64,000 nt of DNA, from assembly GCA_008632985.1 (NCBI GenBank), contig QPGO01000004.1, positions 558,001-622,000 on the forward strand, given 5' to 3'. Origin of the DNA: Psammoneis japonica. Taxonomy: Eukaryota. The notes under the pieces were generated by a model. It was not told the DNA's origin and searched no databases. It was given only the letters and a program-made list of their open reading frames with translations. Positions 5,989 to 47,459 of the stretch are shown here, piece after piece (position 1 is the first letter of the stretch; each line of letters begins with the position of its first letter). Both the position numbers and the translations under genes were made by a program.

Positions 5989-6639
5989 TTAAGGCCCAGC
6001 GTGAATTAAGGCCCTTGTGCTGTCAGGCTCAAATCATGGATTCGAGGTGCGAGCTCCACAAAAACATCACGAGAACAGTGCTCGACGAATGGTCAGCGGC
6101 CGTTTCCACCTGCAGTGCAGCTGCAAAAAAATGACCATGCCACCACAAATGGAGGTCCAAATGAACAATGCTACACCAATCCTCACCACATTGATGCACA
6201 AATGGATCCTGAGCAGCTTCGTCGCTGCAGTCAATGGATCCATTGACTTGCTCCTCATGGCTCTCCTCTGTTTCTCTGGTGCCTCTCATTGAACTCTTCT
6301 TGCTTTTGAAAATTACAACTAGTTTCTCCTTGTTGTACTGACCTTCACAAAGAAAGATGACACAGTCAACAAACATGATGGAGCACATTCTTCCGTCTTC
6401 GGAGGCTTCTTCGGCGGCGCCATGGTGCATCGTTTATGTCGCATCGATGCGATGTGGGATCCTACGTAGGACGTAGTACTAATTCTACGTATGTGACGTG
6501 GAGGGCCTTAAATCACGACCATCCTATCATCCTCGCTCTTCGGACATTTTGGTTCGCGCGACAAAACTCATCAACTATACGGATTTGAGAAAGTGGAATA
6601 ATTTTTTTTCTGACAAGTTCAACGAGATCTTTCATATAA

Positions 6640-7179: not shown

Positions 7180-7626
7180 TGGTCGCCAAATGAAACGATA
7201 CATTTTTAAGTCGGACGCTCAAGCGGAATTGCAATCTCTTCAATCTCGCATAGGAAAAGCACAATGTTCTGTTCACGTCGACAATATGGAAAGCATTCTC
7301 TCAACGCCTGCTCGTGACAACACAAAAGGATCAAGCAGAGAGATGATGCGGATAGTACAGTAACCGTTGGTTGCATACGGTAGGTAGAGAGCATTGCTTT
7401 TTGAATTGCATGCCGGGCGAAATTATTCATTGGCGGCGTCTCCGCTGATCAAGGTGAAAGATCTTTTGCGTACGAAAGTCTGAGCGTCTCGGGTTGCTCT
7501 CTGCTGTCTAACTGACGTTGTGGTTGTTTTTCTTCTCACTTGAAATAGACACGATCTATTTTGATTTGCTTCAGGTACCATTACCAACTACGTCAGAAAG
7601 AACTGTCTACAATATTCTTAATACTT

Positions 7627-9456: not shown

Positions 9457-10610
9457 GTTTGGCGTTTCGTGTTTTCTCCAAGGACTTCGCTGATCGAAAG
9501 GCACCGATCTCTATTTTGTGAGAGTTGTAACATCACATTTCTTGTGCTCGACGCATTTCAAAATCCCGAACAATTGCTGAGTCACCATCCGAGATAGTGA
9601 CTTCCGCATTTTTTACTTATTGGGTTAGTAATGTCGGGAATGGCAGTGTAATATCAGCGGGACAGCGCACGGGATCACGCTTTTGTCCTTCCCTTATGTA
9701 ACACACGGTACTAGATCAAACTTTTGTTTCCCGCGAGTCTTTTCTTGTAACCCCGAAGGTTCTGGCTGAGCTGTTCAGCAGCACCTGCAAAATGTATTGG
9801 GCTTCCGTCAGCTAAAAAGTGAGCTCTGACGCAGCATCATGACTCAGCGACAAGCGGGGAAAACAACACACCTGATCCAACTTGCCAAATACCTTAGGTT
9901 GATATTATCATCATTCAGACCCTTTGGATTTCGAATATGAAGGTCATTCAAGGTTGTCCTGGCATTCTTCATACTTGAATTTGTGTCCGTCATCACATCT
10001 TACTGTACTTTTTACTTCGTATCTGAGAAAAACCCATGCGTACATACAGTACGTACCATACGACTGTGTAGTTAGCTTTACAGTACGATCGATATTGTAC
10101 GATAGTATGTGACATTTTCCACAAGGTCATTAGATTATTCTGTCCTACTTCTATTCTAGCTACTGTACGAACGACGGATACGACGTAATGTGATGTGCAC
10201 GATGAGCATAAGCTGTAACCGACCAAGCCTCAAACATCCCGATCGCCATGACGGTGACAGCTTGATCTTGCTTCTCTTGGAGCGCTGTGAGTGGTTGGAG
10301 TGGAGCGCTGTGAAAATCATAAAAACCTCATGTACAAAGCACTCCATGCCAAGCATCATGCACTGGCACTTGACATTCAAAAAGAATGTGAGCCCAAACT
10401 GTGGCACATGTGCCAGCACCGATGCACCCCGCAGCTTGGCTCTGCTGGTGGTTTCAACCTGAGCTCACCTTTGGACACCACTTGCAACCCAAGGACAGCA
10501 GGGAACTTGTCAAAATCATGCTCTCTTTGCTCTTCCAGCAGAGATGAGGTGGAGCAAGGTGGCGCCAACGACCTTCCTTGTCAGTTTCGCGAAAAATGCA
10601 AAAAAAGCTG

Positions 10611-11160
10611 TGAGAGGCAAAAGCAGAAAGAAGTCATGACAAGGCCCAAAACAAGGAGTGGAGGGCATTTTTGTGCCACTCTTGTGCAAGGCCAAGTTTG
10701 ATCTCTGCCAACTGTGTGGACTTGTGCAAGTCTGTGGCGTGCATCAGCCAAGTCTCACAGCAAGAGGTTGCCAGCCAAGGCAGAGACAATTTGAAAACAC
10801 AGCATCTCTTGTGCTTTGATGGTGGTCTGAGATAAAAAAATCTTTGTGAGGGGCTCTGGCAATCAGCCAAACAGCAAAAAGAACAAGCCACATGAGAGCA
10901 AAAGCAGAAAGGAGCTGTGACAAGGCCCAAAACAAAAAGTGGAGGGCTTTTTCCATGCTCTTGTCCAAGGCCAACAAGATCAATCTCTGACAACTGCGTG
11001 AACTTGTGCAAGTCTGTGGCGTGTGCCAGCAGCCAAGTCTTGCAGCAGCAAGACAAAGAACATGCCAGCCAAAATGGAGACAATCTGAGAACACAACATC
11101 TCTTGTGCTCTGATGGTTTTCTGTGATGAAAAATTCTTTGTGTGAGGAGCTCTGGCAGTG
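10611..11160. repeat. Diverged tandem duplication, ~282-bp period
   Basis: TGAGAG(G)CAAAAGCAGAAAG..TGACAAGGCCCAAAACAA..CTTGTGCAAGTCTGTGGCGTG..CATCTCTTGTGCT at ~10611-10862 and ~10893-11160. Confidence 0.85.
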
Positions 11161-13570
11161 GCCACAAAAACAGATGCACGAATGACATTTTTTTGCATCT
11201 TGCTTGCACTCATGGCCCAACAACCTGCCTGACAAGCTGCACGTTGAGCACCAATGGCTCCACAAATGTCAATGGCAGAAGCAGTGGCAAAGGCAACAGC
11301 CACAACATGCAAAATGCAAACCCCCGCAAGCTGGCCAGCCAGCATGGCATTGATGGCTTGAGTGTGATGCTTTTGTCAACCTGCACAGAGCACAGAGTCT
11401 GCCACAAGCTTGTCAAGCTTGCGCTTGCTTGGCAAACATGGAATGGCTTCTTGAAGTGTGGCCCTCCTGTGAGCACCCAGGTTTGATTTGTGCAGTGGCA
11501 GGCAATCATGATGTGCAGCACAAGAAAAGGAAAAAATGCACTGATCAAGACAGTGCAGTTGTTGTTGCAAGCAATCAAAAAAAGAGCAGGTGAGGAGGTG
11601 CCATGATTTTGCCAAAATCAAGGCATCCTTTTCAGCAAATTGCGGCAGAACAAGAGTGCCAAGTGCTGTTTTGGCTGAAAAATCCACAAATGAGAAAAAG
11701 CAGAAGCCAGTTGAGAACAAGCAGGCTTCTGCCTCCCAAAATGATGACCAGCTTGACTTTGTTTTCAAAGATTGTCAACATCAGCCAATCAGAAACCAAG
11801 ACAACATGTCACAGTCTCAAGTTGTTCATGTGTCACTGTCAGCTCAAGCACCTTTTGAGTTTTGAGCTCCAAATGGCTTCTACAACAAAATTTGTGTTGT
11901 TGAAAACATGCGCTTGCCATCTCAAATCATCTTTGAGAGACATTTGCTCTTGTGACTGTGCATCCTCAACAAAGCGCCACATTTTTTGGCACTTTTTCTG
12001 CAGAAAATGCTGCAACAACCATGGCACCACACCTCCAGCATTGCCTGCCAACTCTGTGGGTTTGCAAAGACAAGAGATGAATGTTTGGCAAGTGCTGGCT
12101 GTTGCTGGAGATGACACATAATTTGTCCAGTGCTTTTGCAGCAGAAGAAAAGCTGAGAATTTCATTGAGTTTGGGCAGAAAAGTGAACAAGGCTGCAGTC
12201 ACTTTTTCTGCTCAAAGGAGAAGCCAGCCAGCGGCACCCAGCCTGTTCATGCAGCCACAGCACTGAAAGTTGTGCCGCAGTGGGATGTTTGAAAATGTGC
12301 AGATGGAGGGCACAGCAGTGGCTTGTCCATGAAAGATGACAAACAAGAGCTGCCAGTGCAAAGCAAAGCAGAGCCAGTTTTCATCATCCCCTGGAAGCAC
12401 ACAAAAGGAGAGTTTGCAGCACACCTTTGCAAGCAACAACCAACAAGAAAGACAATGTTGTGACCAACAATGTTTTGCAAATCAGCTCAGTTGGCAAGCA
12501 ACGATGCTCCAAGTCACAATTTTGTCTGCTGCAATGCAGCAAACAATGGACCCATTGGACCCAGCAAAGCCATTCTGATCACAGGTGTCTCTTTGCCAAG
12601 AACATCCTCACAACTGTTTGTGCTCTGCAGACAGCTGCTTTGAGAACCTTTGGGTCCATTGCTGGCTCTGCTGCCAGCTCCCTGAGTCACATGGCAAGCC
12701 AGAGACTGGAGAACAGAAAAGCTGTGGAACTGATGTGCTTTTGCAATGGCCGCAATGGAGGCAGCAGTGATGACAACAAAAGTGCTGGCTGCAGTGGCAG
12801 TGGCAAAACCATCTCAGACAACAAAGCAGTGATTTCTCTACATCCATTTAGAAGGAAGAAATTTGTGAGAAAAAAGAGGAGGTGTTTGTCCTCAATGATG
12901 AATGACCTTCCAGTCAAAACAAGCTGCACAACACAGGCTGCACACCCACATGTTGCCAGAAAACTCAGAACTCCCCAAACGTCATGGCGCACTTGACCAA
13001 AGCACAAGCACATTGCAAGACCACCCTTTGAGTCAAATGATGGTTGCTTTGACAACTTTGTCAAGCCAAGCCATGACCAAACAGCCTTTGTGGCACTCAC
13101 AAAGTGGTCATCTGCTGAATGAATGCATGCATGTCTCCAGTGGATGCCATGATGACAGTGGCACCTGTTTTGTGGTGGAAAAGAGATGTTGTTGGAGCTG
13201 CTGGCACTGCAAGTGATGAGAGAGAGAGAAAGGTGTGCACCCAGCTCTCAAGGCTTCATTTCCAAGCACGTGATGCTGCATTGACTCTCTCAAGCAGGTT
13301 CACGGTGCACGTCATTGCTCCTGAGATAAAAGCAGTGCCCACAGGAACCAACAAATGTTGTCAATCAACTTTGATGCTCTCTGGGTCAAGTGTGTGCTGC
13401 CTTCTTGCAAGCATTTGTTTCTGGGCAGCACTTGACTTTTTGCAAAGGTGGCATCAGCTGTTGCTCAAGGTTCTGTCCCTCCAACAATGCAACAAAGACA
13501 AGCCCAACAAGCACCAATTGGATTTCACTGCACCTGCATTGGCAGATGCAAATCACAACAACTTTGTCTT

Positions 13571-13612
13571 TGTGTGTGTTTGTGTGTGTGTGTGTGTGGG
13601 GGGGGGGGGGGC
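13571..13612. repeat. (TG)n microsatellite followed by poly-G
   Basis: Directly visible. Confidence 0.9.
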
Positions 13613-13619
13613 TTCATGA

Positions 13620-15250
13620 GTTTTGAGCAGATTTGCAGGCTGGGATTTTGTCTTGTGAGAAGATTCCAGGGGAGGCAAGGTTGCAACAATGGCAGGGGTT
13701 TCTTGTGTGGATGGTGCAGAACTTTCTTGAGGGTCAAAGTCTGCCTGCAGCAGGCCAGTGCATTGAACACCAAATTGCAGCAAAGCATTGGCACAGTCAA
13801 AAACCAGAGCAGGGACAACAGCACCACGGTGGTGGAACAAGAGCACAAGCTGGCACCTGTTGTGCCTTCAGCTCAGTGAAAGTGCTCTGTTTTCAAGTTG
13901 GAAATGAAGGCAAGTGAGACACTGGCCTTGTTGGATTGAAAAGGTTGGCAGTTGTTTTGCAAGCATTGAGGTGCAGTTGCTCACAACTTGACCCCAGTTG
14001 ATCACCAACAATTGCACACAAATGGCCAGAATTTGAAGGCACAAGATGCCTTGAAACCCATCACTTGAAGAAGGCCAAAGAAATCTGGAGCTTGAGGAGT
14101 GACAAGATGAGTGGGAAGCACAAGTCATTGCACTGCAAAGTGAAGTCCAGGCACCCCATTGTGTGTTGCCCCAAAGAGTGCACACAGCAACAACACAAGG
14201 CACAGTTTGATGCGGCACAAGAGAGCAATTTGTGAGGTTGACACTGGCAGCAACAGCAAAAGCCATGGCTTGCTTTTGAAAACTTTCAAATTGCTGTTGG
14301 CAACAACTGCTGCACAGGCCATCACATGTGGCTGCAATGTTTTCTTGATGCTTCTGAGATTGGTGCTGTGACAAAAAATTGTCAGACTTGAAGAACAGGT
14401 CATGTCAGCAATTTCTGAAAAAGAGTGCACATGAAGGTGAGCACAACTTTTGCAGGTTGCATGGTCAAAACTGCACTGTTGCACCCACTGGAGCTGGAGT
14501 GCACTTGGCAGCCAACTCGCTGCAAAGAGAAAGCTGTTGTCCCAATGTTGTTGTGCAGTGGAAAAGCAGAGAGGCAGCTGACAAGAGCATCATTTTCAGC
14601 TTTGCCACCCTGGAGAGACAACAAAATCAAGCCCCCTCCTGTTGCCCACCAGTGCCTCTGCTGGCATTGCATAAGAGCTGCAGTGCACACTGCTTGCTTT
14701 TCAGCAAGAAGTGCAGTGGGCAGTGTCAGAAAACAAAGAAAAGGCAAAATCTCAGGTGTGGAAAGCCACCACAGAAAAGGTGGCAGAAACAGTCCCATGG
14801 GAGGGAAAACTCAAGACAGGAGATTGCACCACACTTGCAGTCAGACATGATGACTGACCCAGCTGCCAGGTGGTTTGAAATGGGCAAAGTGTCAGCCACA
14901 AAGAGCAGTGCCATGCATCACATCTGGGGGTGCCACTCAGCAAACCTGGCCATGCAGATGTCTGTGGCCAAGGAAGGTCATTTTCAAGAAGAGAAGAGCC
15001 AAATTTATGGCTGAACTTGTCAGAGTGGTGCAGAGTCACTGTGGTCTTCAAAAAAGGCCAACAGGAAATGCACTCTAAAGGCAAGCTCTGCACAGCTGAG
15101 TGGATGCACCAGACAACCAGAAATGTGGTGTGGTCACTTTCAGCACAGGAAACTGGACAAAGACAACCCATGGAGCAGGGAGCACAAAAAACAAAGGTGC
15201 ACACTCTGATTGAGCAAGCCCAGCACAGCATCTGGTGTTCAGCAGAGACA
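13620..15250 (+). pseudogene. Ty3/Gypsy LTR-retrotransposon pol relic (RNase H-integrase; RT very degraded)
   Basis: Frameshifted motifs: LLKTFKLLL (LKEFRNILLG), HEGEHN (YIKGEHN), CQKTKKRQNLRCGKPPQK|VAETVPW, MTDPAARWFEM (MIDPATGWFEI), KFMAEL..SHCGLQKRPT (EFMAEF..DYGLKKRP), EWMHQTTRNVV (ERIHQTIGNM). Confidence 0.75.
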
Positions 15251-18200
15251 CCACATTGAGTGCACCAAGGCACCGGCTGGGGGAGCTCACAGGACAAAAA
15301 GCAGAAGCTTGCCTGGACAAATGACAAGCAAAAGAAATCCAAGTGCTGAGAGTGCTGACACACTGAAGCACTTGGTGCTCATGAAACAAGAGCATGGGTG
15401 GGACTGAGTGCAGGGCTGTCCACTGTTGTGCAGGTCCCGCCACAGAGTTGCCTGTGCAAGCAACAACAAGATGCACTGATGTGTGCTCAATCTGTGGCAA
15501 ACAGTGCCCTGTTGTCAGTTCTCAGCAAGGCACATGGTGATCTGTGGCCTCATCATGGGGGAGCATCATGCAGCATGCATTGTGCTGACAGCTGGCAGGT
15601 GCCGGTGTGCATCCTGTGGCGCTGCCCTTCTGGAGGCAAGGGCACAGATGAGCATGCTGAATGAGCCTGTGTGCCTTGCCATTGTTCTGCCAAGCAGAGG
15701 CACTGGTGTGTTTGTGCACCAGCCAGTTGCATGTGAGCTTCCACTGCAATGTTTGTGGCTGCACTGCAGGATGCCTTTCTGTGGCTGGCACATGATGCAG
15801 CCACTCACTTTGGACAGCTGTTTGATGGCTGTCATTAGAGGAGAAGCAAGAAATTTTGAGAAATGCCCAGGAAAGCTGGGGTGTGCACAAAAAGGGCATC
15901 AGGTCTGTTCAGCACTCACCAAATCTGGCTAAAAACCACAAATGCACTGGTTGGCAGACTCTTTCAGTGCAAATTCAGCACAAAATGTTTTGGCCAGCAG
16001 ATGGCTGGATGCCCCCCCAAGCCTTGGCCCCCTTTTCTGGGATGATGCATTTGTGGGCTCACAACACCTCACTGTTTGAGCACCATTTTTGGGATGGGCA
16101 AACCACAAAGTCTGAACAAGCATGCCCTGTTGGTCTTCTTGTTTGAGCTCTTCTTCTTTCCAAGCTGGGTGGTCACATTTGTTGATCCACTCTTTGGCCA
16201 GCCACATGGCAAAGATCATCTGTTGGACCAGTGGGACAACTTCTGCTCTGCCTGCAGCAGGGTTGGCACCTTCTCTCTCAAAGTTGTGTGGAGCACACCA
16301 ACAGACAGCTGGAGTCACAGCCCAAGCTTGTGGTGTCCCAACTTGTCCTTTTCTTCTTTGACCATCCTGCACAGTTTTTTCAAGGCCAACCTTGCGCCTT
16401 CTTTCCCCCCTCCCTCATTTTCTTTTCATGGCTTGCTCCCTTCTTGCGTCCACCGAGTCATTGGAAAGCTTGAGTGCTGAGCCTGGGCTGCACTGTGGGT
16501 CTGAGGTTGCTGCAAGTGTGTGCCACTTTGCATGTGCTGCCAGTTGCTGATGTCCTTTCTTTGTGACATTCTTCTTGGTGATGTTGGCTTGCTGTGGCCT
16601 CTTTCTTCATGCCTGGTCCTCTGGTGCCCTTGACCATGTGCTGCTCTCATCCTCCATCCAATCTTTCTTGCAGCTTGGGCTGGCTCTGCCTCATCTGTGC
16701 CCCACACAGGAGCATTTTTCATCTTGCTGTGTGTGCCCTTGGTTGGAGCATTTTGGAGCAGCTTTGGCCAGCTTTTCCTCCTTCTGACTTCCTTCATTTC
16801 CAAGAGCAGCTTTGAAATGGCCAGTTGTCAAGAAGCCTCAGTTTGGGAGTTTCCTTGCTCAGGTTTTTAGGCTGTGCTTGTCAGGGACCCCCCTTTTGGT
16901 TGTTGGCAGAGTGTCTCTTGCACACTTGGGCAGCCATGGTCAGCACAAAGTTTCTCCCACCCTTGGCTGGGGTCAGTCCTGTGCATCCAGTGGCACTGCT
17001 TCTAAGAGTTGGCTTGTGGTTGCTGCAAACTTTCCAAGACAGAGTCCTCCTGCACATGACAAGCAATCCTGTGGTGTGCTTTTGTGCAAACTCCACCAGG
17101 CACCAACATCTCAGATCACAGAAAAGCAGGGTCTGGGTTTTGGATCCTGAGTCATCTTGGAAGACATGTGGGTTTGCTCTGCATGTTGGTCACCAGTGCC
17201 TGGGCTGTGTGCTAATTTGTGAAATTGCAGCACCAGGCTCAGAACCTGCCAGAACTTCAAAAACAGAAGTGGCACAAAATTGAGCAAGGTCTTGTCTTTC
17301 TTTGGCATCAAGACTGACTTTGCAGCTTGGCATGTTTGGTTTGTGGCACAGGGGCACTTGGCTGGAGCTTCTTTGCCAGGTTTTGCACAGAGCAAGATCT
17401 TGCTCCTTGAAGTTGGGCAAACTTGGCAGCCCTTCTCTGTGTTTTTTTTTCAGCCAATGACCCACCATGACACTTCTTGACTCAAAAGAAAGGCATGTCT
17501 CTGTCAAAACCAGTCACATCAATGCTTTGATTGCACTTGTTCAAAGCTCTGGTTCTTTCTGGACCCATTCACACTTTTGCCATGGCCATCTTGTTGAGGC
17601 AGCATGGCTTTTCTTGTGAAAGCAAGAGCCCACGCTCAACTCTGGCAGTCACCAACTAATCAAGTGGCACCTGCCTTGGGCACCAAGGGTGTCTCTCTTG
17701 ATGTTTTGCACTTCATGCTGGGGTGTCTCTTTTTCCATTCATGGGGAGGGGTTGTTGGTGTCTTGGCAGCAATTGAGATGAGCTCCATTTCTGCCTCTGT
17801 GGCTCAAGTGTGCATTGCAGGGCACCACTGAACTTGCCTCCACAGCAGTGCTGCAGAAGATCTGATTGTTTTAGAAGACATTCCTGTCCACCTTGACCCA
17901 GCAGGAAACTTTGATGCTCTTTGGCATCCTTGTCATGCTGAGAAGTGTTGCTTTCTTCTTCTGGCAGCTGCTCACAGCCTTGTTCTTGATGCGCCCTCAG
18001 CATCCCCCCCCTGAGTTGCTCTGCTTCTGTTTTTTCTTCTGGAGCTGGAGCAACTCCATGGCATCTGCTGGCAGCACCTCACTTCCTTTTCTCAGCTGCA
18101 CCATCATCTTTTGACTCTTTCTAAGATTCCTTTGCACAGCTCTTTTCAAACCCCTTTTCCCACTTCATGGGGCACATTCAAGATGTCAATGAGCGCTCAC

Positions 18201-18399
18201 ATGCAGAGATCTCTTCTCTCCAGCATCTTGTTGACAAGACTCATGGTGGCACAAAACAAAAACACAAAATTTGCAATTTGGTGTTGCCACCCTGCCAGCA
18301 CTTCCACCCAGCAACTCCAGCAACAAGCTGACCCACATGCACAGCACACTTGCAGCATGGCAGGAGCACACAAATTGTGAAAATGTCTTGCCAAAAACA

Positions 18400-19900
18400 G
18401 CTGGCAATGGCTTGAGTGCCTGTGACAGCAAACTGCCAAGCCTTCCAAATGCTTGGCTTGAGTGCTGGTTTTGCAACAGCCTGCCAGCTTCTCAACCTGT
18501 GTGCCAGGCAAAAGAGGTGCTTTTTGCCTGAGTCAAAAAGATGTGCTTTGTCCTTTGCCAAGCAGCCATCTGCCCAACATTGTCCTTGCTTCCTCTCAAT
18601 GCACCAACTTCCTGGTTTCCATGCCATGTGTCCATGAGTGCCATCATTGTGCGCACCCCACAGATCCCACAGCCCAACCACCCAAGTGCCAAGCATTTTC
18701 AAGCCTTTGCTCCAGGAAGAGGACAACGTGATGCACAGCAGACAAGGCTGCTGAGCCTCATTTTGCAGCACAAAGAAGTGGTTGGTGAAGATGTGCTGCT
18801 GGCCAGCAATGCTGTCCCAAGAGGAGGCTGATGCAACAGGCAGCGCATCTCTTCTGGACATGGACCCGTGGTGGTGGGGCAGCATGGGATGGAGGGAACA
18901 AGAGCTTGCTGCAGACCAGCCATTGTCAACAGCTGCCTTTGAGCTGGTGCCTTTGAAGTGAGCATTGCTCTGATGCTCTTTGCTTTTCAGCTCCAGCAGT
19001 CAGCATCCTGCGCAACAGATTGGGTCATGTGCAAAGCTTGTCCAAAGACCCAGCCAAATTTGAGTGTCAGCTGGCTTGCCAATGTCTCTGACTCAAAGAG
19101 TTGCTGCTGCTTCTGCTCAGATGGGTGCTGAGAGCATTTGTGCCTTTTGCTTCACTGCTGCTTGGAGAGAGTTTGTGGCACTGTGTGCAACAACCACAAT
19201 GCTCTCTTGCAGTTTTTCATGCCTTTGTTGCTGCTCACAAGGGCTGTTGCCAAGCTCAACTTCCTAAAAAGAAATGCAGCAGGGAAAATGGCACACTTTG
19301 GCTCGTGCTGCATTTGACAACAAATGGGTGGCCAACACATGCAGACATTGAGGAATGTGCACAATGGCCCCATTGTCAGTTGTCTTGACAGCAAAAACCA
19401 CTCTGTGACAGCAGCGTTGTCTTTTTGTTGAGCCTGACTCACTGCTCTGAACACTGCCAGCAAGTCGAAGAGCTCCAATGCCACACAACAGCTCCTCAGC
19501 ACGTTTTCTCAGCTCTCCTTGTCACACCTGCACATGCACTTGTCAAACATGCTCCTGTTGTTGTTGAGAGTTTTTTGTCATTTTGTTCAATCTTTGCACT
19601 CAACCTTTTGCATGTTTCTTTTGCTGCAAAAACTCAAAACAGTGAGGCAATGGATCTCTGACCAGAAACAGCTCTAAAACTCCAGGCATTTGTGGGGATC
19701 AGCAGTGGGCACTGGGCTGCTGTGGGTGGGGGCATGTGGAGCAGAGCCAGACAATTGTGTGTGGACAGCAGCAGCCCACAGCAACTCTGTCTTCCAAGTG
19801 CAGTTTTGACAAACAAAAACAACCCCACCCACAGTGCCAATTGACAGAGGCTGCTTCAACGCAAGCTCTGCACACACAAGATTTTTTAGACAGCTGCTGC
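18400..19900 (-). pseudogene. Non-LTR retrotransposon (LINE) ORF2 C-terminal relic
   Basis: RNase H-like ALELFDLLAVFR..KDNAAV, Cys-knuckle-like DPICCAGC, and WSKGLKMLGTWVVGLWDLWGAHNDG..HLF..RLRSWQ resembling the W..RN..H tail of LINE ORF2. Confidence 0.5.
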
Positions 19901-20381
19901 AGTCCAGAGAACCCCTCAAAATCAAAATCCAGCGCTGTCCACATCAAGCCAATCCAGTCTGGAACAAGATGTCAGTGCAATGGCTCATGTTCTTGGGAAC
20001 TGCACATTTGAAAAATCACAGATCTCCCCGCCCTGATGTCTTTGAGTGCCCTGGCTGGCAACATTGTGCTGGGGCCAACACCCTCTTTGGAGCAAACCAA
20101 CTCTATTTGCTCTTCTGCTTCTCTCACTGATCTTGTTCTTTTGCCCAATGTCCAGAACATCCATGCTGTTTCCGTTCTCCTTCTTGTTCCTGATTCTCAC
20201 TCCAATGTTGACCTCATCTTCAGAGCCGTTTCCTTTTGGATCTGTCGTGTCAGTGTCTTGTTCTCAGATCCCTTGCTGCCGTCCCACCAGTCGTTTCCAT
20301 TGTCAAAGCAGGTCTGCTGCAGCTAGAGGCGCTTGTGTTCCTCGTCCTTCAACTCACCAAAATAATAAAAAATTGTTTTGC

Positions 20382-23300
20382 AGACAAGGTCTGCACTCGA
20401 AAAGCACTGTACGCAACCAGCTCGAAATTTGGGTTGGTCTTTTTTTTTTGTCGCCAAACGAACAAACAATGCATCTAAGTCGGATGCTCCTTCAGAGTTT
20501 CAATCTTGCGGAGAAAAATCACGAACGATGTTCTGTTCACGTCGTCAATGTGGAATACATTCTCTCAACGCCTGCTTGTGACAACACGAGAGGATCAAGC
20601 AGAGAGATGATGCGGACAATACAGTGCCCGTTGGTTGCGGAGGTCGAGATCAGCGTTTTGGATTGCATACCGGGCGTAATTTTGTGTTGGCGTCGTCTCT
20701 GCTGATCGAGGTGAGAAGTCTTTTCGATTGCATCCGAGCGTCTCGGGGCGCTCTCTGCTGTCTTGGGTTGTTTTTCTTCTCACTTGAAATAGGCACGAGC
20801 TACATTTTGCTTCAGATGTCATAACCAACTTCGCTTGAACAAACTGATCTACAACACTTTTAAAATATTTCTAGAGATTTGACGGCAGAAGAACATCGTC
20901 GATGACATGCACAATACCGTTGCTTGCTTCAATGTCGGTATCAACAACTTTAATGCCATTGATAGTTGCACCGACCCGCCTGTACCACCTCTTGTACTGG
21001 ATATCAACGTGAAGGGCTTCACCCATAAGAGCCGTATCAACCGAACCTTCCGTCAAATCGCGAAACCTGACCTTGCCAGGGATGACATGATAAAGAAGAA
21101 TCTTTTTAAGGGTTTCGGTGTCGGCAACGACAGCATCGAGGGTAGTGTCAAGCTTCTTCAAAAGTCTGTCAAAACTTGCATTAGTTGGGGCAAATACGGT
21201 AAAGGGTCCTTCCGATTGGAGTGTTTCAACCAAACCTGCCGCCTTCACCGCTGCAACAAGAGTGGAGAAGTCTTTGTTCGAGCTGGCTACTTCGACAATG
21301 TCTGGAAGGGGTTCTGGAGGAATTAGAACCTTGTCAATGACATGAATAATACCATTCGAAGCTTTCGTATCAAAGCTGGTAATTTTCGTGTCACCGTTGA
21401 GTTTGGCATACCTGAAATGCCCGAAGAAGTACTTGACGTCGACCTCAATGCTACTTTTTTTCAGCGCTGTAGCTACCGAGCCATCTCGAAGGTCGTCACG
21501 AGTGACTACTCCAGGAACGACATGGTAGAGGAGTATGTTCGTGAGGGTTTCTCTGTTCGCTTCCTTGAGCAGGGCATCCAAGGTGAGGCCGAGCTGCTTC
21601 AGGGTCCGTGTGAAAGCTTCGTTTGTGGGCGCAAATACGGTGAAGGGGCCACCACGAAGAGTATCAACCAAGCCAGCCGTCGACACAGCCTTTACAAGAA
21701 TGGAAAAGTCGTCGATGGAACTGGCAACATCAACAATGTCTGGCTTCTTGTCGGTCTTGGGTTCTGGAGGAATGAGGACGGTGTCGATCACGTGAATGAT
21801 TCCATTGTTTGCCAAAATATTGACGTCAGTGATTTTGACCTTGTCGTTAAGAACAACCTTGTCGCTCTGCACGTCCACATCGATCTCTTTTCCAAGCAAC
21901 GTCTTGATGGGTCCGTCCTTAAGTTCTTTGTCCACAACAATGCCAGGCAGCACGTGATACTTCAGAATGTCTGCAAGTGTAGCTTGATTTTCGGGTTTGA
22001 GAAGATCGGAAAGGGTCATACCAAGCTTGGAAAATGCTTCGTTGGTCGGAGCGAGCACGGTCAATGGCCCGCCTTTCAGCGCATCCACCAAACCGGCTGC
22101 TTGAGCAGCTTTAACAAGCGTGGAGAACATAGACGGGTTGGCAATGGCTACATCCACAACATCGTTCGTTAGGAACGGGGGTACCAACACGGAATCCACC
22201 ACTTGCACAAGCCCATTGCTAGCTTGTACGTTGCGTTTCAAGACGTTGGCGTTGTTGATCTTGATGTTCCCCCGCATTCTGGTTGCAACGACGCTATCAC
22301 CTAGAAGCGTCTTGATGCGGGCATTGTTTTCGATAGCTTTGCGGTTGGCCTTGACTCTGCCTGGGACAACATGATACTTGAGTAAACCACGTAGATGCTC
22401 AATGTATGAGTTGTCGGTCGTCAACTTTTTCACCAACTCCTTATCCAACGCGGAGAATGCTTCATCCGTTGGAGCGAAGACGGTGTAGAGAGGACATCTG
22501 GCTCTGTTTCTCCTCCATGTGCAGCCAAACTCCGAGTCAAGGCCAGCGATACCAAGGGCGGTAACGAGCGTTTTGAACCCGGCGGACTTTGCAATATCCA
22601 GAATCGGGACTCGCTTTCTTCGTAGCTGTCGTTCTTCATCTGTGACTTCACCAACAGTCGAGGCGGTTGAAAAAGAGAGACACAACGCGCCCAACAAAAA
22701 GTAGGGAAGCTTCATGTTTGGCAATCGTGTTTTCTCCAAGGACTTCACTTATCGTAAAGCACGTTATTTTGTGAGAGTTGTCACATCACATTCTGGGGTG
22801 CTCGACACATTTCAAAATCCCGAACATTTCCTGAGTCACCACCCGAACTGGTCACTTCCGCATTTTTTACTTATTGAGTTACGGGTCGGTAATGGCATTG
22901 TACCATCGGCGGGACAGTGCACGGGATCACGCTTTTGTCCTTCCCTTATGTACCTCACGGTACTAGATCAAACTTTTGTTTCCCGCGAGTCTTTTCCTGC
23001 AACCCCGAAGCTTCTGGCTGAGCTGGTAGCAGCTCCGCAAAATGTTGCGCTTCCGTCAGCGAAAAAGTGAGCACTGACGTGTGCGACATGCGGGCAAAAC
23101 AACGCACTTATTGAATATTTGACAAAAACCTAATATTACTTATGTACGAAGGTCATTCAGGAATGTCCTACGACTAGAGTCATGACATTCTTCAAGAACC
23201 CATAACCCAAGCATCAACAAACCGACGCGGTTCGTTCCCGCCCGACCGCCATGATCGATGACGGATGACGGTGACCGGCTCGATCTTGCTTCTCTTGGAG
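20382..23300. repeat. Segmental duplication copy B; direct repeat of 7059-10283
   Basis: See copy A. Confidence 0.9.
20871..22715 (-). CDS. Secreted fasciclin protein with four FAS1 domains (paralogue 2)
   Basis: MKLPYFLLGALCLSFSTA.., nearly identical to 7627-9456, intact ORF. Confidence 0.92.
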   Translation of the reverse strand: MKLPYFLLGALCLSFSTASTVGEVTDEERQLRRKRVPILDIAKSAGFKTLVTALGIAGLDSEFGCTWRRNRARCPLYTVFAPTDEAFSALDKELVKKLTTDNSYIEHLRGLLKYHVVPGRVKANRKAIENNARIKTLLGDSVVATRMRGNIKINNANVLKRNVQASNGLVQVVDSVLVPPFLTNDVVDVAIANPSMFSTLVKAAQAAGLVDALKGGPLTVLAPTNEAFSKLGMTLSDLLKPENQATLADILKYHVLPGIVVDKELKDGPIKTLLGKEIDVDVQSDKVVLNDKVKITDVNILANNGIIHVIDTVLIPPEPKTDKKPDIVDVASSIDDFSILVKAVSTAGLVDTLRGGPFTVFAPTNEAFTRTLKQLGLTLDALLKEANRETLTNILLYHVVPGVVTRDDLRDGSVATALKKSSIEVDVKYFFGHFRYAKLNGDTKITSFDTKASNGIIHVIDKVLIPPEPLPDIVEVASSNKDFSTLVAAVKAAGLVETLQSEGPFTVFAPTNASFDRLLKKLDTTLDAVVADTETLKKILLYHVIPGKVRFRDLTEGSVDTALMGEALHVDIQYKRWYRRVGATINGIKVVDTDIEASNGIVHVIDDVLLPSNL

Positions 23301-23396
23301 AGCAGTCAAAGGTCAGAATAGAGCGCCGTCTTGTCTTCACTGAAGTCGTCGTCTCGTCCTTGGAAAGAGACCACACGCATAAAATCCTTTGCAATC

Positions 23397-40096: not shown

Positions 40097-40375
40097 GTGC
40101 CGAGAAATGTGCGGGATTTGATGTTGTGACGACTGACTGAACGCGCGCGAGGTGCATGGCGCATTCAACTTCTCAACTTGGAACTCAAATAAAAATAAAC
40201 AGCTTCTTCTACTAGCTAGAGTAGAGATACTTTCCATAAGCGATACTGCACGTAAGGCGAGCCATTGGGATCCGAAATCCGTAAACTCTAGAGCAATATC
40301 CTAGTTTACGATGCATGTGTTTCGTAGACGCAACCCGTATCCGCTCTCTGCCACCTATGACGGCAGAGCAGACTC

Positions 40376-41688
40376 CTACCTTTTCATTAGTTCAAACGCC
40401 AACAAAGCCGTGACTGCAGCGGCAGTGTACCATTGAAGGATGGCGCCATACTTTGGTGGCTTTTCCTTCTTGTCTTCCAACGCCTTGAGAGGATTGTGAA
40501 AGTTTTCAAAGAGACGAACAAGGTTCCTCTCCAACATGGCCACGGTTACTTTTCCAACCATGGGAACATAGACGACACCCGGAATCTTGAGCAAGCTTTC
40601 CTCGTCAACATTCTTGAAGGATGCCACGTTGACGACTGTCGTGTTGGGCTGAATCCATTCAGACGGAAGACGATAAGCCTTGGTCGGCACACCCGTCACC
40701 ACAACCGACGACTGTAAACGGCACAGAAAGTGAGAAAGACGAGATCACAACAACAAGAGAATCAGCAGAAGAATGGTTTCGACGAATTCAAGCCAAGATT
40801 GCAAGAGCAATATGCAATTTATAGCTTCGTACCTTGCGAACACAGCTTTCCGGTGTTTCATCCGGGCATTTCTGAAGGCGCCCTCCACGAAACAGATAAA
40901 TCGAATTAATGTCAACCGAGTACACATCGGCTCCGTCATTGTGCAGCATAGCCGCCAGCGGTCTTCCCACAACCTCGCTGCGATTAATCACAGTGACGGT
41001 TCGTCCCTCCATTTGCCTTCTCAGCGGTTTTGACTTGTCGTAACAACCAGGACACTGTTCCAGAATCTTCACCACTGACAAGGCTGTACAAGGCAAGACA
41101 CATTTTTGCGTATTGGCTGGATAATCCAGAAACCGAACATTACGATACAGATTGGTTCGGTAGGTATGACAAAGTCCCTCGACGTCGCACTTGTACGAGA
41201 TCGTGTCGCGCAAGTAATCATCCTGACTAGCTCCAGAAAAGCTTTCTTCCTGACCAAAAATAGGGTAGTATACAATAATACCATGGACACGAGGATCATC
41301 ATTTGCATCATTGAGTGCTCGTTCCACATCAATCGGGTCGTCTATCGTGCGAAGCTCGTACCGTAATCCATCGGCTCTGCACGCCTTTCCGGTCCACTCT
41401 GCATATTTCTTGGCTGCGGGATCATTGTTGGCCAAAAGTCCCACCAACAAGGGCGCATCTATCATAATGGAGAATCGCAAAAGCAAGGAAAAAGAGGAAT
41501 TATTAGACAGTCTTTGCGTAAGAACGAAATCACAATGGGTCGAAATTCTTACCGATGCCCATCTTTTTCAGCTCTTGGACCTTGGTCTTGATCTCATCAC
41601 GAAACGGCTTGGAAACAACTCCTGCATCCACTTTCACTCCCACCGTTTTGGAAGCTACAATGAGTGGTGTATCTTTGGTGTCCGTCAT
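40376..41688 (-). CDS. MTD1: Methylenetetrahydrofolate dehydrogenase, MTD1-like FolD family; two introns
   Basis: PLLVGLLANNDPAAKKYAEWT, HGIIVYYP, DDYLRD..CDVEGL, LPCT, VINRSEVVGRPLAAML.NDGA.VYSVD, VPMVGKVTVAMLERN. Confidence 0.9.
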
Positions 41689-42062
41689 GATGCTTGTAGG
41701 CAATGTTGTAAGTACCGTAACAGCAATGGAGTTCTGGTTTTTTGATGGATTTTTTGTGTTTAGCAGGATGGATCTTTTTTCCCGCTTTTTGGATGGATAT
41801 TGGATATCCGTCATTCTTGCTGATTAGATTCCACATTCCTTTCAAAGCATGACGTAAAAGTGATGCCATTATGACGTACAGTAGACAATTGTTTTTCGAA
41901 ATCGCCGACATCATACATGCCATGCGACACACGAAGCACAATGCCAAAACAGCCGTCAGTCTCGGCATCGCACCCTGTGGCATTATCCTCACCAAGACTG
42001 TTCATGCAAGGTACAAGCACCTTGTCACTCATCACCATTTCAACTCTGTGGATCTCCGTTGC
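41619..42062. repeat. ~0.45-kb duplication copy A (MTD1 5' end, divergent promoter, 5' end of dehydrogenase); direct repeat of 45455-45932
   Basis: CTCCTGCATCCACTTTCACTC ... CAACTCTGTGGATCTCCGTT shared between the two copies. Confidence 0.92.
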
Positions 42063-42390
42063 CCGCGCATCCAGCCGTTTTGATCAGCGATTGTCTTTTG
42101 ATCAGCGATTGTCTGCTTGTCGCAGCAGATTCAAGGCACGCGACAACACAAGGCAGTTGATTTCAAACACAGGATCTTTTCTTCTCTCGACTTCAAATGC
42201 AGGATCTTTCTTCTTCTCTTTCTTGCTGTCGCTCTGGCTCTTGCTCTTGATCTCGTCATCGCTTTCCTCATCACATTTTGATGTGTTGGAAGAAATGGAA
42301 CAATCATCATCATCATCATCGCTGACATCACACACCATTGCTTCATTCATGGTGGCAGCTTTGGCAGTTGTTGTGGGGGTGACAGTGGTG

Positions 42391-42690
42391 GCAGCACCTG
42401 ACTTGGTCTCAGGAGCAGCACCCGACTTGGTCTTGAGGGTGGCACCCAACTTGGTCTCGAGAGTGGCGCCCAACTTGGTCTCAAGAGCAGCACCCAACTT
42501 GGTCTTGAGAGCAGCACCTGACTCAGTCTTGAGAGCATTGTCCAACTTGGTCTTGAGAGTGGCACCTGACTTGGTCTTGAGAGCAGCACCCGACTCAGTC
42601 TCGAGAGCAGCACCCGGCTCGGTCTTGAGAGTGGCACCCGACTTGGTCTTGAGAGCAGCACCCGACTCCGTCTCGAGAGTGGCATCTGAC
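42391..42690. repeat. 24-bp tandem repeat (~12 units) encoding (K/E)T(K/E)SGA(A/T)L on the minus strand
   Basis: Units like GCACCCGACTTGGTCTTGAGAGCA; ORF 42102-42791; looser copies continue to ~42950. Confidence 0.9.
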
Positions 42691-44558
42691 ATGTCAGTCT
42701 TGGTGGCAATGGCTGCAGCCATGCTTGTCTTGGTGGCAGCAGCTGCAGCCAACTTGGTCTTGAGCATGCCAGTGGCACCTCCTGACTTCACTCAGAGAGG
42801 ACCGGCGGGGCAGTCGACTTGGTCTTGAGTGCACCAGCAGGAGCCGACTTGCTCTTGAGTGCACTGGCAGCCATTGACTTGGTCCCAAGCTTGCCAGCAG
42901 CTTTCAACTTGGTCTTGAGCGCACCAGCAGTGCCCGACTTGGTCTTGAGATCAGTTGATGCAAAAAAGGTGTTGAGTGTTTTTTTTTTGTGGAAAGCAAC
43001 TCCCCTTTGGTGGGCGGGAAACCGAGGAGTGTGCATTGGTGCTTCCTGTCTTTTCAGTCTCATCCTCTGGATCCGAGACCCAATCTGTTCTTTTGCACCT
43101 GCCACTTGGTGATTTTGAAATGTCGCTTTCCAAATCCATGCTGTTGACGCTCTTGGAACTCGTGTCCTCTAGAGAAAGCTGCTTTGCAAGCTTGAGATCA
43201 CCGTGGAACCTGGCCTCAGTCTCCGCTCTGCTCCATGAGTGTGGATTGGTTGATGTGGCATTGTCCAAAACCATGCCATTGGTTGTCTTGCACTTCTTTG
43301 ATGAGACATTTGCACCAGGTGTGGTCGATGTGTTGCGTGGCAATGACTTTGTGCTCGACTGGTGAAATGACAGCAAAGACAGTGTCACGGTGGTTTAGAG
43401 AGGAAAAATGTTAAAATGGGTCTGCGATCAATTAGAAAATTGCACTTGCTTTTGTCACAATGTTTCTCTTTCAAGTCACATTCTTTGGTGTTTTCCATGG
43501 CCCATGTGAGAATGAATCATCATGACTGTTGTCGCTTGAAACTGAAACGTCACCACAATTTTGGCTGGAAAACAAATCTTCATCGCTCAACAAAGACTGG
43601 AGATGCGAAATGTTTTGACATCTGGTGGGCCGCGACAGCCTGCTTGAAACCTGGTGTGACAAAACAATGACAAAAGAGTGAGGATGGAATTGAAAAGGAT
43701 GCAAAAATTGACAAGGAGACAAGTTGACAATCTAGCGCAATTGACAACTCCACTTGCCATGATCAAAGAGAGCTTCTCTGTGGATCCACGTGCAGCAGTG
43801 GCAGGGGCTTCCACGCAGTGGTGGAACGTTTTGCAGACAATGGACTGATTCACAAAATGCTCAATGGAGACAATGATGCAAGACATGTCATGAGTCCATC
43901 ATGACAGCACAATGCAGTGCAGCGCACATGCAGTCACACTTGCAGTGTCAGCAACTGGTGCGCAGCTTGTTGCATGGGTTGATGTGTCCGTGGAATTGCG
44001 GTGCTTTGGTGAGGTGGCAACATCTCACTTGTAGAATGTGGGAAAGCAACCCAGGTCATGACGAGCCACTGCAAGGCATGAGAGTGAAACGATGACAACA
44101 CTGACATGGATGTCGAATGCCAAGATCACCTGGAGTGGTTCAAGAGGCACATTAAGAGAGATGACAGCGGCGGTGTTGTGCAGTGTGTCTTGTTGTGTTG
44201 GTCAAATGGATGCTGCAGATGATCTTGCAGAAAAATGTGCTGTGATTGGGTCCACATTGATTTGTGTGGAAACAACACAATCTTTGGCTGTGGTGGGATT
44301 TTTGAATCGTGAAGATGCGCTGACATTCATGTGTGAATGCTCTGCAAAAATCACGCGTTCCACCGTGAGATCATGATGACAGAAAGACCAGCACTGCTCA
44401 AAAATGCACCCCAAGCATGGTGCTGTTCAAGACCAAGACGAACCATGTTGGAGAGCCAGCAACAGGAGTGCTGGCAATGACAATTCTGCATGTCCATCCC
44501 ACTGCTCACCAACTGCTGCATTTGACACCAATTTCATCACACAAATCTTTGGATGCAA

Positions 44559-45450
44559 TCAAGATCTTTTTGCTCTCTTGTCATTCTTTCCACTTGATCT
44601 GTCAGCCTTGCAAGCTTCCATGTGGCGCTTGCACTTGGAGCACATCCTGTTGACCTTTGCTCCAACAGCTTCTGTGCGGCGCTTGTGCTTTGAGCCCATC
44701 CTGTCAACCTTTGCTCTGCGAGCCTTTTTCCCCATGCCAATGCAGTCTCCTTCATGGAACCGCAATGGACGACTCCCTCTTTAACTGCAAAGCCACTCAT
44801 GGTGTGGTGTTGCACATGACCAGCTGCAAATTGCATGGTCATTTGATCATTGATCCCAACAGCCTTGCCCAGTTCCAGGAGTGGAAAGTGCAGTTGCACA
44901 TGCTCAGCATTGGTCAGGACATCACCCACAAACTCATGCACGCAGGTGGTGGGGACACACAAGTTTCCAAATTTGTCCAACCACGCCAGCAGATGACTTT
45001 TCTCTTGATTGGTCAGGATGTGGTCATTGCATCTTTGACAATCATGTCTCTTGTCATTTCCTTCACACCATCAGTTGAATCATCGCTGTGAATCAAACTG
45101 CAGAAAGTGATGCCTTTAGGAGCTCCCAAGGTCAACACACCCCTGAGACAGAGTTCAGTTGTTTCTGTGCCCATGACCACAGCCAAAGCATTTGTGAAGA
45201 GTTTGTTGCATGCTGCTGCTCTGCCTGTTGCCAGATTTGTCAAATCTGCTTGGAGATCTGCCGCTGCTGGAACCAAAGCATCTTGACAATGCTTGCGACA
45301 ATGTTGGGACTTTGCCTTCTTGTCACCAGGATCAGCGAGGAGGTTGCAACTCAGCTGACAAGTGCAGCCGCCAATCTTCATTGAATGCATGCCCATCTGC
45401 CCATCAAATGTTGCAGCTCAGCAGCGCAAGGTCCCACCCAGAGCTGGAGC
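44559..45450 (-). pseudogene. Decayed TET/JBP-like 2OG-Fe(II) dioxygenase
   Basis: FCSLIHSDDSTD (HxD at 45082-45090), frameshift ~45035, LLAWLDKFGNLCVPTTCVHEF..LHFPLLELGKAV.I.D..MQFAAGHVQHHT (distal His ~44804-44809)..AWG. Motif-level recognition only. Confidence 0.45.
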
Positions 45451-45454
45451 GTGT

Positions 45455-45932
45455 CTCCTGCATCCACTTTCACTCTCTCCGTTTTGGAAGAGAGCTGCAA
45501 TGAGGAGCGGCGCATCTTTGGCGTCCGTCATGATGCTTGAACAAAGCGCAGTTCTTGGCAACAACAGCAAAATGGGAAAACAAAAACGAGAGTCTGGCGG
45601 AGAGTTCTGATTTTTTTTTTGATGGATCAGATCCAGCTCTAGCTAGAGAGCAGAGCAGGATGGATCTTTTCCCCCGCGCTTTTTGGATGGATGTCCGTCA
45701 TTCTTGTTGATCAGATTCCACATTCCTTTCAAAGCATGACGTAAAAGTGATGCCATGGTGACGCAGACAATTTTTTTTCGAAATCCGACATCATGCCATG
45801 CGACGCACTTGAGCACAATGACAAGACAGCCGTCAGTCTCGGCATCGCACCCTCTTGTCCCCATCAAGACTGTTCATGCAAGGTTTCAGTACCTTGTTAC
45901 TCATCACCATTTCAACTCTGTGGATCTCCGTT
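45455..45932. repeat. ~0.48-kb duplication copy B; direct repeat of 41619-42062
   Basis: See copy A. Confidence 0.92.
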
Positions 45933-47366
45933 TGCCGTGCGTTTGTTCCGAGGAGACTGTCAACTTCAACTCGTTTCCTTCGATCAACGCCAACCCCGCT
46001 GCTTCTGGGTAAGAGGAGTTTGACAATGCTTGGAGAAACTTCACCTCCCAAATATTGGAATCGCGAAACATCGTCTCCAAAAGAATTCGATGATTCTTCG
46101 CCTATTGTCAAGGAGGCGAAAATTCTGAGTCTGAGCGACCCGCTTGACGATGCCTGTTCACCGCTTCATACGGGAAAACTACCCGAGGGTGCAAAACTTC
46201 TTTCGATTGGATGCACGTTGGAAGACTTTGATGTTGAAGCTCTCAAAAAGGAGGAACCAAACGTCCTTTTCGTTTGTCATCCCAAGGTATGTTAGCAATG
46301 TTGTGTGGGTATTGTGTATTCTCTTCTCACCTCGACGGTTTGGTTTCACGTTTTCATACATAGGCAAAAGAACCGCTTGTGCAGATCCTAGAAGCCTTGC
46401 CCAGCATTGAATGGGTTCATTCACGTGCCGCTGGGATTGATTTTATTGCTTCTGAAGGCCTAGCCAAGAGTAGTGTACTACTTACAAATGCAAAGGGGAT
46501 GTTTTCGAGTACCCTGGCAGAGTACACAATGATGGCTTGTTCGTTTTTTGCAAAGGTAAAAAAGTTCTGCGCGCGCACTGTACATTCGTGGTAAGGATTG
46601 CAAGGATCGGACTAAATCATCTGTTTCGCCGATCTCGATCTTTTGCAGGATTTACCTCGACTCATGCGACAAAAGAAGGACAAGAACTGGGAAAAGTACA
46701 GTGTCTGGAACTGAGAGGTGCAACTTTAGGTATCATTGGGTATGGCGATATTGGGAGGGCGTGTGCCAAACTGGCAAAAGCTTACGGGATGAATGTAATT
46801 GCCTTGCGTCGAAATCCTGAGCTGAGCAAGGATGATCCTTTTTGTGATGTAGCCTATGGCAATGACTCATTACACCGTCTCATGGGCGAGAGTGATTACG
46901 TTTTGGTAGCTGCACCGCTCACGAATGACACGCTAAATCTGGTGGACAAGGAAGCGTTCTCACACGCCAAGCCGGACTCGGTGCTCATCAACTTGGGTCG
47001 CGGTCCCATTGTGAATGAAGAGGCACTCATTGATAGCTTGAAAAACGGGAAAATAAAGGGGGCGGCGCTTGATGTGTTCACAGAGGAACCGCTTCCGACC
47101 AACAATGAGCTTTGGGCGCTCGACAATGTCCTTTTATCGCCGTGAGTAGAATGATTCGTTGCGTAACATCGCCTCCAGACAGATTTTTCCTTATTTTTTT
47201 CTCTTTCATTATCGCTCTCTTTTTGTTTTGCTGTTGCAGACACAACATGGACATGACTGCTACGTTTATGCACGAGTCCACTGAATTCTTTGTAAATGAA
47301 AATCTACCTCGATACCTTCGCGGAGCAGAGCTATTGAATCCTGTAGACAAGGCCGCAGGCTACTAA
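45876..47366 (+). CDS. D-isomer-specific 2-hydroxyacid dehydrogenase, probably plastid-targeted; three introns, apparent frameshift ~46703
   Basis: WVHSRAAGID, LTNAKG.FS..LAEY, TLGIIGYGDIG, INLGRG, GAALDVF..EPLP, LLSP|HN. Signal peptide followed by CRAF. Confidence 0.88.
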
Positions 47367-47459
47367 CGAGAATAACTGCTCATACGGTGAGGAATAATAA
47401 GTAAGACAGCCAAGACACATAACATCCAATCTTTGCTATTCTTACACCGAAAACACACA

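Follow-up and report, generated by a model that had tools for sequence, protein, structure and literature searches.

A frameshifted relic of an unannotated HxD...H protein family lies in a TpA- and CpG-depleted island of the Psammoneis japonica genome

Introduction

In fungi, repeat-induced point mutation (RIP) converts CpA into TpA and lowers the GC content. Genes for TET/JBP enzymes are reportedly linked to Kyakuja-Dileera-Zisupton (KDZ) transposons in basidiomycetes.

A process of the opposite direction was measured in mutation-accumulation lines of the alga Bigelowiella natans, in which integrated NCLDV, virophage and other foreign DNA is hypermutated: of 231 mutations counted in two pieces of viral DNA, one from a giant virus and one from a virophage, 230 were A->G or T->C, and each of these 230 lay on TpA (Mettrop et al., 2026, preprint, 10.64898/2026.01.13.699255). 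The main text of this preprint describes 124 TpA-depleted, CpA+TpG-enriched clusters genome-wide, whose genes are mostly unannotated, gives TpA frequencies of 6.0% for the whole nuclear genome and 4.1% for CDS, and proposes an ADAT2-like adenine deaminase as the agent; the terms 'CpG', 'TET', 'dioxygenase' and 'hydroxymethyl' are absent from that text (10.64898/2026.01.13.699255). To date, reports of hypermutation of foreign DNA at TpA are confined to this one alga.

Here we analyse a 64-kb window of P. japonica DNA (the whole stretch of 64,000 nucleotides, to which all positions refer). Its central locus is best read, with a probability of roughly 0.6, as a pseudogene of an unannotated HxD...H family, most likely of the TET/JBP kind, that was hit by TpA/CpG hypermutation on DNA that had arrived in this genome.

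Composition of the islands

The island that carries the relic, its flanking repeats and the neighbouring genes are as follows.

42013..45650, unstranded: hypermutated island with TpA and CpG depletion; a weaker TpA depletion goes on to ~46100
41760..42070, plus strand: left direct repeat of ~300 nt, flanking the island, TpA content normal
45650..45945, plus strand: right direct repeat, 86% identical to the left copy
40202-41744, minus strand: flanking gene, spliced transcript contig
45829-47414, plus strand: flanking gene, spliced transcript contig

Three compositional islands, at 4701-6400, 10201-20500 and 41901-46100, make up about a quarter of the window. Within the last of them, 9 TpA are left in 3,627 bases (42013-45639), as compared with a background TpA frequency of 3.7%, and the 1-kb windows covering 42001-46000 have a TpA o/e of 0.02-0.09, a CpG o/e of 0.32-0.59 and a mean TG/CA o/e of 1.55-1.90. 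The GC content is unchanged at 0.49 (0.48-0.49 over the three islands), and the rest of the window has a TpA o/e mostly of 0.35-0.85. The 10.3-kb island at 10201-20500 has a TpA o/e of 0.04 (0.01-0.07) and a CpG o/e of 0.11 (0.03-0.15). It sits exactly between two paralogous ~3-kb blocks of normal composition (7261-10311 and 20525-23329, 88% identical); these blocks were considered as a mutational record and discarded as ordinary paralogues, their TA/CA differences being symmetric (24 vs 20). The island at 4701-6400 is smaller and less advanced (TpA o/e 0.20, CpG o/e 0.64, TG/CA o/e 1.60).

CpG o/e is ~1 outside the islands and 0.03-0.6 inside them, which suggests an island-confined cytosine methylation or deamination. 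The loss of CpG in the same islands as TpA points to a second process, probably linked to methylation. The TG-vs-CA strand asymmetry of the islands lies within the background range, and so offers no hint of an enzyme that acts on one strand.

The two copies of the direct repeat differ in a directional manner: the right copy carries CA or TG where the left one has TA at 7 places, and the reverse is found at 2. The right copy also overlaps the 5' end of the transcript contig of the downstream plus-strand gene, which starts at 45829.

Genomic context

Both flanking genes are spliced, the introns of the neighbouring genes being GT..AG stretches of 77-121 nt. These introns are recognized from the contigs of run X2, which is recorded as 'DNA?' and behaves as RNA, since its contigs skip stretches of this kind (GT..AG, or CT..AC on the other strand). 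The depth of this RNA-like run over 41869-45339 is 0 save for 1.84 in one bin, a figure that is no measure of expression. By DNA depth the island is single-copy (69.6 vs 58-61 in the flanks); no empty-site allele was seen, the contigs of the DNA run never joining across the island.

The earlier note on this DNA had speculated that a mobile element carried the gene. The six read-through frames of the relic's island and of the 10-kb island hold no Pfam domain, and in particular no transposase, integrase, reverse transcriptase or capsid domain; the search for terminal inverted repeats returned 0 inverted pairs. Carriage by a recognizable mobile element was thus not borne out. By analogy, the island may plausibly be inserted foreign DNA.

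Two further features lie within the island.

42391..42949, minus strand: 24/30-nt tandem arrays inside a long ORF with LKTKSGAA-like 8-residue repeats
45414..45450, unstranded: 37-nt motif just upstream of the relic start, very high copy in the DNA run

The long minus-strand ORF contains tandem arrays of 18, 24/72 and 30 nt at 42078-42949; it encodes ~20 LKTKSGAA-like octapeptides followed by a poly-Asp/acidic Lys-rich tail, has no Pfam match and may represent another gene of the insert. The 37-nt motif is present once in the window and also occurs in the RNA-like run. Its bin reaches a DNA-run depth of 5517, as against ~60-70, its other copies have unrelated sequence on both sides, and its fold is no better than that of shuffles.

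The relic gene and its homologues

The relic is composed of two overlapping parts.

45013..45417, minus strand: N-terminal part (frame A), 134-aa stop-to-stop ORF, homology from ~45408 to 45070
44537..45070, minus strand: C-terminal part (frame B), 177-aa ORF, homology from ~45004 to 44725
45004..45070, minus strand: frameshift zone, inferred as one 1-nt shift between frames A and B, with the frames read against P0004
44613..44716, unstranded: 54-nt tandem duplication, 1.9 copies, in the 3' tail of the relic ORF

These stop-to-stop ORFs lie in different frames of the minus strand and overlap at 45013-45070. The 134-aa ORF (45013-45417) ends in ...GITFCSLIHSDDSTDGVKEM...TTS and a stop, and the 177-aa ORF (44537-45070) contains PTTCVHEF, LHFPLLELGKAV, FAAGHVQHHT and LAWG; the motifs and minus-strand ORFs quoted in the earlier note, FCSLIHSDD among them, are all present as it described. 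An exhaustive phmmer search over 1.84 billion cluster representatives, with the 177-aa ORF as query, returned 13 proteins at E<=1e-3 (best 4.2e-10), 11 of which form one small family. The other two, P0011 and P0014, were excluded: they are repeat proteins, whose 6 and 12 matching stretches fall elsewhere in the query. Conversely, tblastn with the family proteins matched the window at 44.6-45.4 kb only, with E down to 2e-18, and found no intact family copy in it.

The relic belongs to this family along both of its frames. Frame A aligns with family columns 122-266 and matches through the HxDxxD block, with the conserved His at 45090-45088, the Asp at 45084-82 and the second Asp at 45072-70, that is, H, D and D where 14/14 homologues carry them. 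Frame B matches from the K..Y..W block on, with PTTC at 44953-44942, a His that replaces an invariant Tyr at 44938, the distal His at 44809-07 and AWG at 44737-29; its tail beyond AWG is non-homologous to the family. The two frames follow each other along the family with a single 1-nt shift, which upholds the earlier reading of a genuine gene that has decayed and carries one frameshift.

The family amounts to the 11 phmmer proteins and 6 more from follow-up searches, all from environmental assemblies (JGI/IMG, ENA, Logan); they are eukaryote-like and ~230-400 aa long, and all named members are called "hypothetical protein". Its signature reads [NS]SxHxDxxD ... PTTCxYEF ... FFLFPxLG ... LQFxxxxxHxTS ... 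AWG, and the residues invariant in 14/14 homologues are G127, F135, H140, D142, D145, PTTC189-192, Y194, G198, F230 and H237 (P0003 numbering).

None of the 14 family members matched Tet_JBP, any 2OG family or any other Pfam family at E<=10, neither of the two window ORFs matched a relevant Pfam family, and the family has no match in PHROG. The window ORFs matched no PDB chain; with the family, the PDB sequence search gave an RCC1 match, rejected as a spurious 'AWG' stretch, and no other. A scan of IMG/VR yielded 28 pattern matches and 0 confirmed relatives, and a tblastn search with P0012 through 50,697 phage records found no match. The metagenome scan returned one related contig (L001) of 2,985 nt, in which a 297-aa ORF precedes the family gene on the same strand, 18 nt separating the two (915-1808 and 1827-2789). 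For this 297-aa ORF there is neither a Pfam family nor a window counterpart; the other ORFs of the contig likewise have no Pfam family, no window match and no mobile-element hallmark.

Relation to TET/JBP enzymes

The most likely original function of the family is that of an Fe(II)/2-oxoglutarate dioxygenase of the TET/JBP kind, an assignment that we hold at about even odds. It is favoured by the invariant His-x-Asp, the distal His and the beta-rich C-terminal half. The H-x-D...H triad (H140, D142 and H237) is invariant in 14/14 homologues, in agreement with the earlier note, which had singled out the HxD and the distal His, and all three residues are kept in the relic. Dioxygenase chemistry is what we infer from these features; TET/JBP membership is a lead only. 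The earlier interpretation was borne out in part; for its TET/JBP-like enzyme, the invariant triad and a language-model search argue in favour, and Pfam, PDB and hhalign gave no significant match.

With P0012 as query, the ESM Atlas feature search placed 21 of its 30 nearest neighbours in the PF12851 Tet_JBP set (score 0.93, 182-183 of 256 features shared), so that the clusters nearest to the family bear the TET/JBP label. The first match was an unnamed basidiomycete cluster (0.94), and the neighbours were mainly basidiomycete clusters. The 'recognition' value of this search, 1730, is below the tool's mark of 2300, which makes it weak evidence by the tool's own rating; with part of P0003, the search gave no usable match.

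Mycobacterium phage Cooper gp2 and its actinophage relatives, of which 35 of the 120 listed were aligned, served as comparator. Cooper gp2 itself, taken as the positive control, matched Tet_JBP (PF12851) with 26.6 bits and an E of 4e-6. The family and the phage set both carry the H-x-D and distal His, a variable insert after the HxD, and a hydrophobic-x-[LF]-P ... F-6-H block in which the spacing P-15-F-6-H is identical (P214, F230 and H237 in the family; P200, F216 and H223 in phage TET/JBP). The distal His of the two came into register in greedy full-length hhalign and in hmmsearch --max. Statistically, hhalign of the family against the 35 actinophage TET/JBP proteins, the actinophage subfamily being the sole comparator, gave a probability of 0.4% and an E of 0.15; the trimmed-core score of 12.9 was reached by 20 of 300 column shuffles, and the best hmmsearch --max result was 2.8 bits, with the phage HxD aligned to another family motif.

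Other features set the family apart from TET/JBP. It gave neither an HMM match nor, against the actinophage set, a profile-profile match, and an additional segment of ~47 residues, which includes the invariant PTTCxYEF, separates its HxD from its P...F...H block. In TET/JBP enzymes, a conserved Arg after the distal His has a role in 2OG binding, and this residue, R238, is invariant in the 35 phage proteins, whereas no Arg or Lys is invariant past the distal His of the family; the residue 15 positions past this His, as read by eye, is a Tyr in most members. The AlphaFold models built with 14 and 40 rows reached pLDDT values of 41.9 and 48.1, which renders the Foldseek output meaningless; against the PDB, it contained nothing at E<=1e-3.

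The family could also be real without being TET/JBP or any other 2OG dioxygenase, with H-x-D...H marking another metal site or fold; the relic would then be a dead gene in hypermutated DNA. This would agree with the alignment- and fold-based TET/JBP tests, all of which failed or were uninformative, with the lack of a conserved basic residue past the distal His, and with an N-terminal half predicted to be helical by AlphaFold at low confidence. We nevertheless regard it as unlikely, while taking it seriously, because 21 of the 30 Atlas feature neighbours lie in the Tet_JBP set and the distal-His block is colinear and equally spaced in the family and in phage TET/JBP. A dioxygenase of the TET/JBP kind remains our preferred assignment in what follows.

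State of the relic and direction of the mutations

The relic is a dead gene, although its erosion is only moderate. Of 110 conserved columns, it agrees with the consensus of the family at 50 and differs at the remaining 60, and it keeps all four candidate metal-ligand residues (H, D, D and the distal H) together with PTTC. The six conserved Tyr columns of the family are occupied in the relic by His (CAT) four times, Cys (TGC) once and Ala once. CAT and TGC at five of the six are what TAY->CAY/TGY changes (TA->CA/TG) predict. The TpA->CpA/TpG direction in the island is thus recorded both in these columns and in the repeat copies (7 vs 2). The reversal of PTTCVHEF to PTTCVYEF made in the earlier note proved apt, for the homologues have PTTCxYEF, with Tyr in 14/14.

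That the gene still functions, its apparent frameshift being an intron or a programmed shift, is very improbable: the break is single and 4/4 candidate ligand residues are retained, but every conserved Tyr is replaced and 60/110 conserved columns are off consensus. An intron does not explain the break in any case, since across it the relic is as long as P0004, without an additional gap, which leaves no space for the 77-121-nt introns of the neighbours.

The loss of Tyr codons by TpA/CpG transitions in the island makes the gene a target of the mutation and not its demonstrated cause. The causal link from the gene to the T->C signature that the earlier note had speculated on found no support, the gene being hit by that signature. 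As a mutator, a TET/JBP-like family would turn thymine at TpA into 5-hydroxymethyl- or 5-formyluracil, which would pair with G and give T->C, the relic being a burnt-out copy; the main text of the preprint leaves this route aside. 5-Formyluracil does mispair, a chemistry that lends this idea some appeal, as does the co-location of the relic with the signature. We give it very little weight: the relic copy is dead, no intact copy lies within the window, the dioxygenase identity is itself unproven, and the CpG loss requires a second process either way. Moreover, the adenine-deaminase idea put forward in the preprint explains TpA->TpG equally well (10.64898/2026.01.13.699255).

The exhaustion of TpA takes away the TAA and TAG stops as well as every Tyr codon, and the six-frame translation of the island accordingly has 0.0% Tyr and 4.9% His (3.1-3.3% outside), with HxD at 2.6 per 1000 residues vs 1.0-1.2 outside; the HxD motif taken alone would not beat chance. 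Our first reading, that chance alone produced the motifs in TG/CA-rich non-coding DNA with all frames open, could draw on these Tyr-free frames rich in His, Cys and Gln, on their frequent HxD and on the two window ORFs without a Pfam match, but it was overturned and is now negligible, given the alignment of both frames to the family and a significant homology across them to 11 independent environmental proteins.

Discussion

We favour the reading given at the outset, a pseudogene of the HxD...H family hit by hypermutation on arrived DNA, and it implies the following course of events. The gene would have come in on a 3.6-kb DNA segment, which today has an expressed host gene on either side. The arrived DNA would then have taken TpA->CpA/TpG transitions and, more slowly, CpG->TpG/CpA transitions; these would have removed every Tyr codon, and the gene would also have gained its one frameshift.

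The locus matters as a gene-level record of TpA hypermutation, legible through converted conserved Tyr codons, and it adds a previously unnamed HxD...H family, possibly of DNA-base dioxygenases, to the cargo list of such DNA. If the family is TET/JBP-like, it would extend these enzymes to new marine eukaryotes and provide a testable candidate for counter-silencing or mutation. There is only a slim chance that the family is a new one of TET/JBP-like DNA-base dioxygenases that rides invading DNA in marine protists, where it would counter cytosine-methylation silencing or, via the oxidation of TpA thymine, drive the hypermutation now ascribed to an adenine deaminase.

Comparison with known systems

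The relic resembles the KDZ-linked TET/JBP genes in that a TET/JBP-like gene lies within inserted-looking DNA, and its Atlas neighbours are mainly basidiomycete. It differs from them in that none of the six frames holds a KDZ transposase or a CxC domain and that no terminal inverted repeats were found.

As in fungal RIP, context-specific transitions have wrecked genes in bounded islands beside normal genes. Unlike in RIP, it is TpA that is destroyed here, the GC content stays at 0.49 and the island is single-copy by DNA depth.

The comparison with B. natans, as far as the main text of the preprint describes it, shows both differences and likenesses (10.64898/2026.01.13.699255). CpG is also depleted here (o/e 0.03-0.6), and this loss is an addition to that text, from which CpG is absent. 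Again unlike in B. natans, no viral or transposon domain was detected here, and three islands occur in 64 kb. On the other side, the island has, by our own o/e calculation, the composition that the preprint describes for its clusters (TpA o/e 0.02-0.09, TG/CA o/e 1.55-1.90), and its TpA frequency is 0.003-0.0045, compared with 0.0018 in the preprint's low-TpA CDS set. In both organisms, TpA is exhausted and CpA+TpG gained in sharply bounded clusters of several kb, and the genes within these clusters are mostly unannotated. By analogy, the process that shaped the P. japonica island is probably the same as that measured in B. natans.
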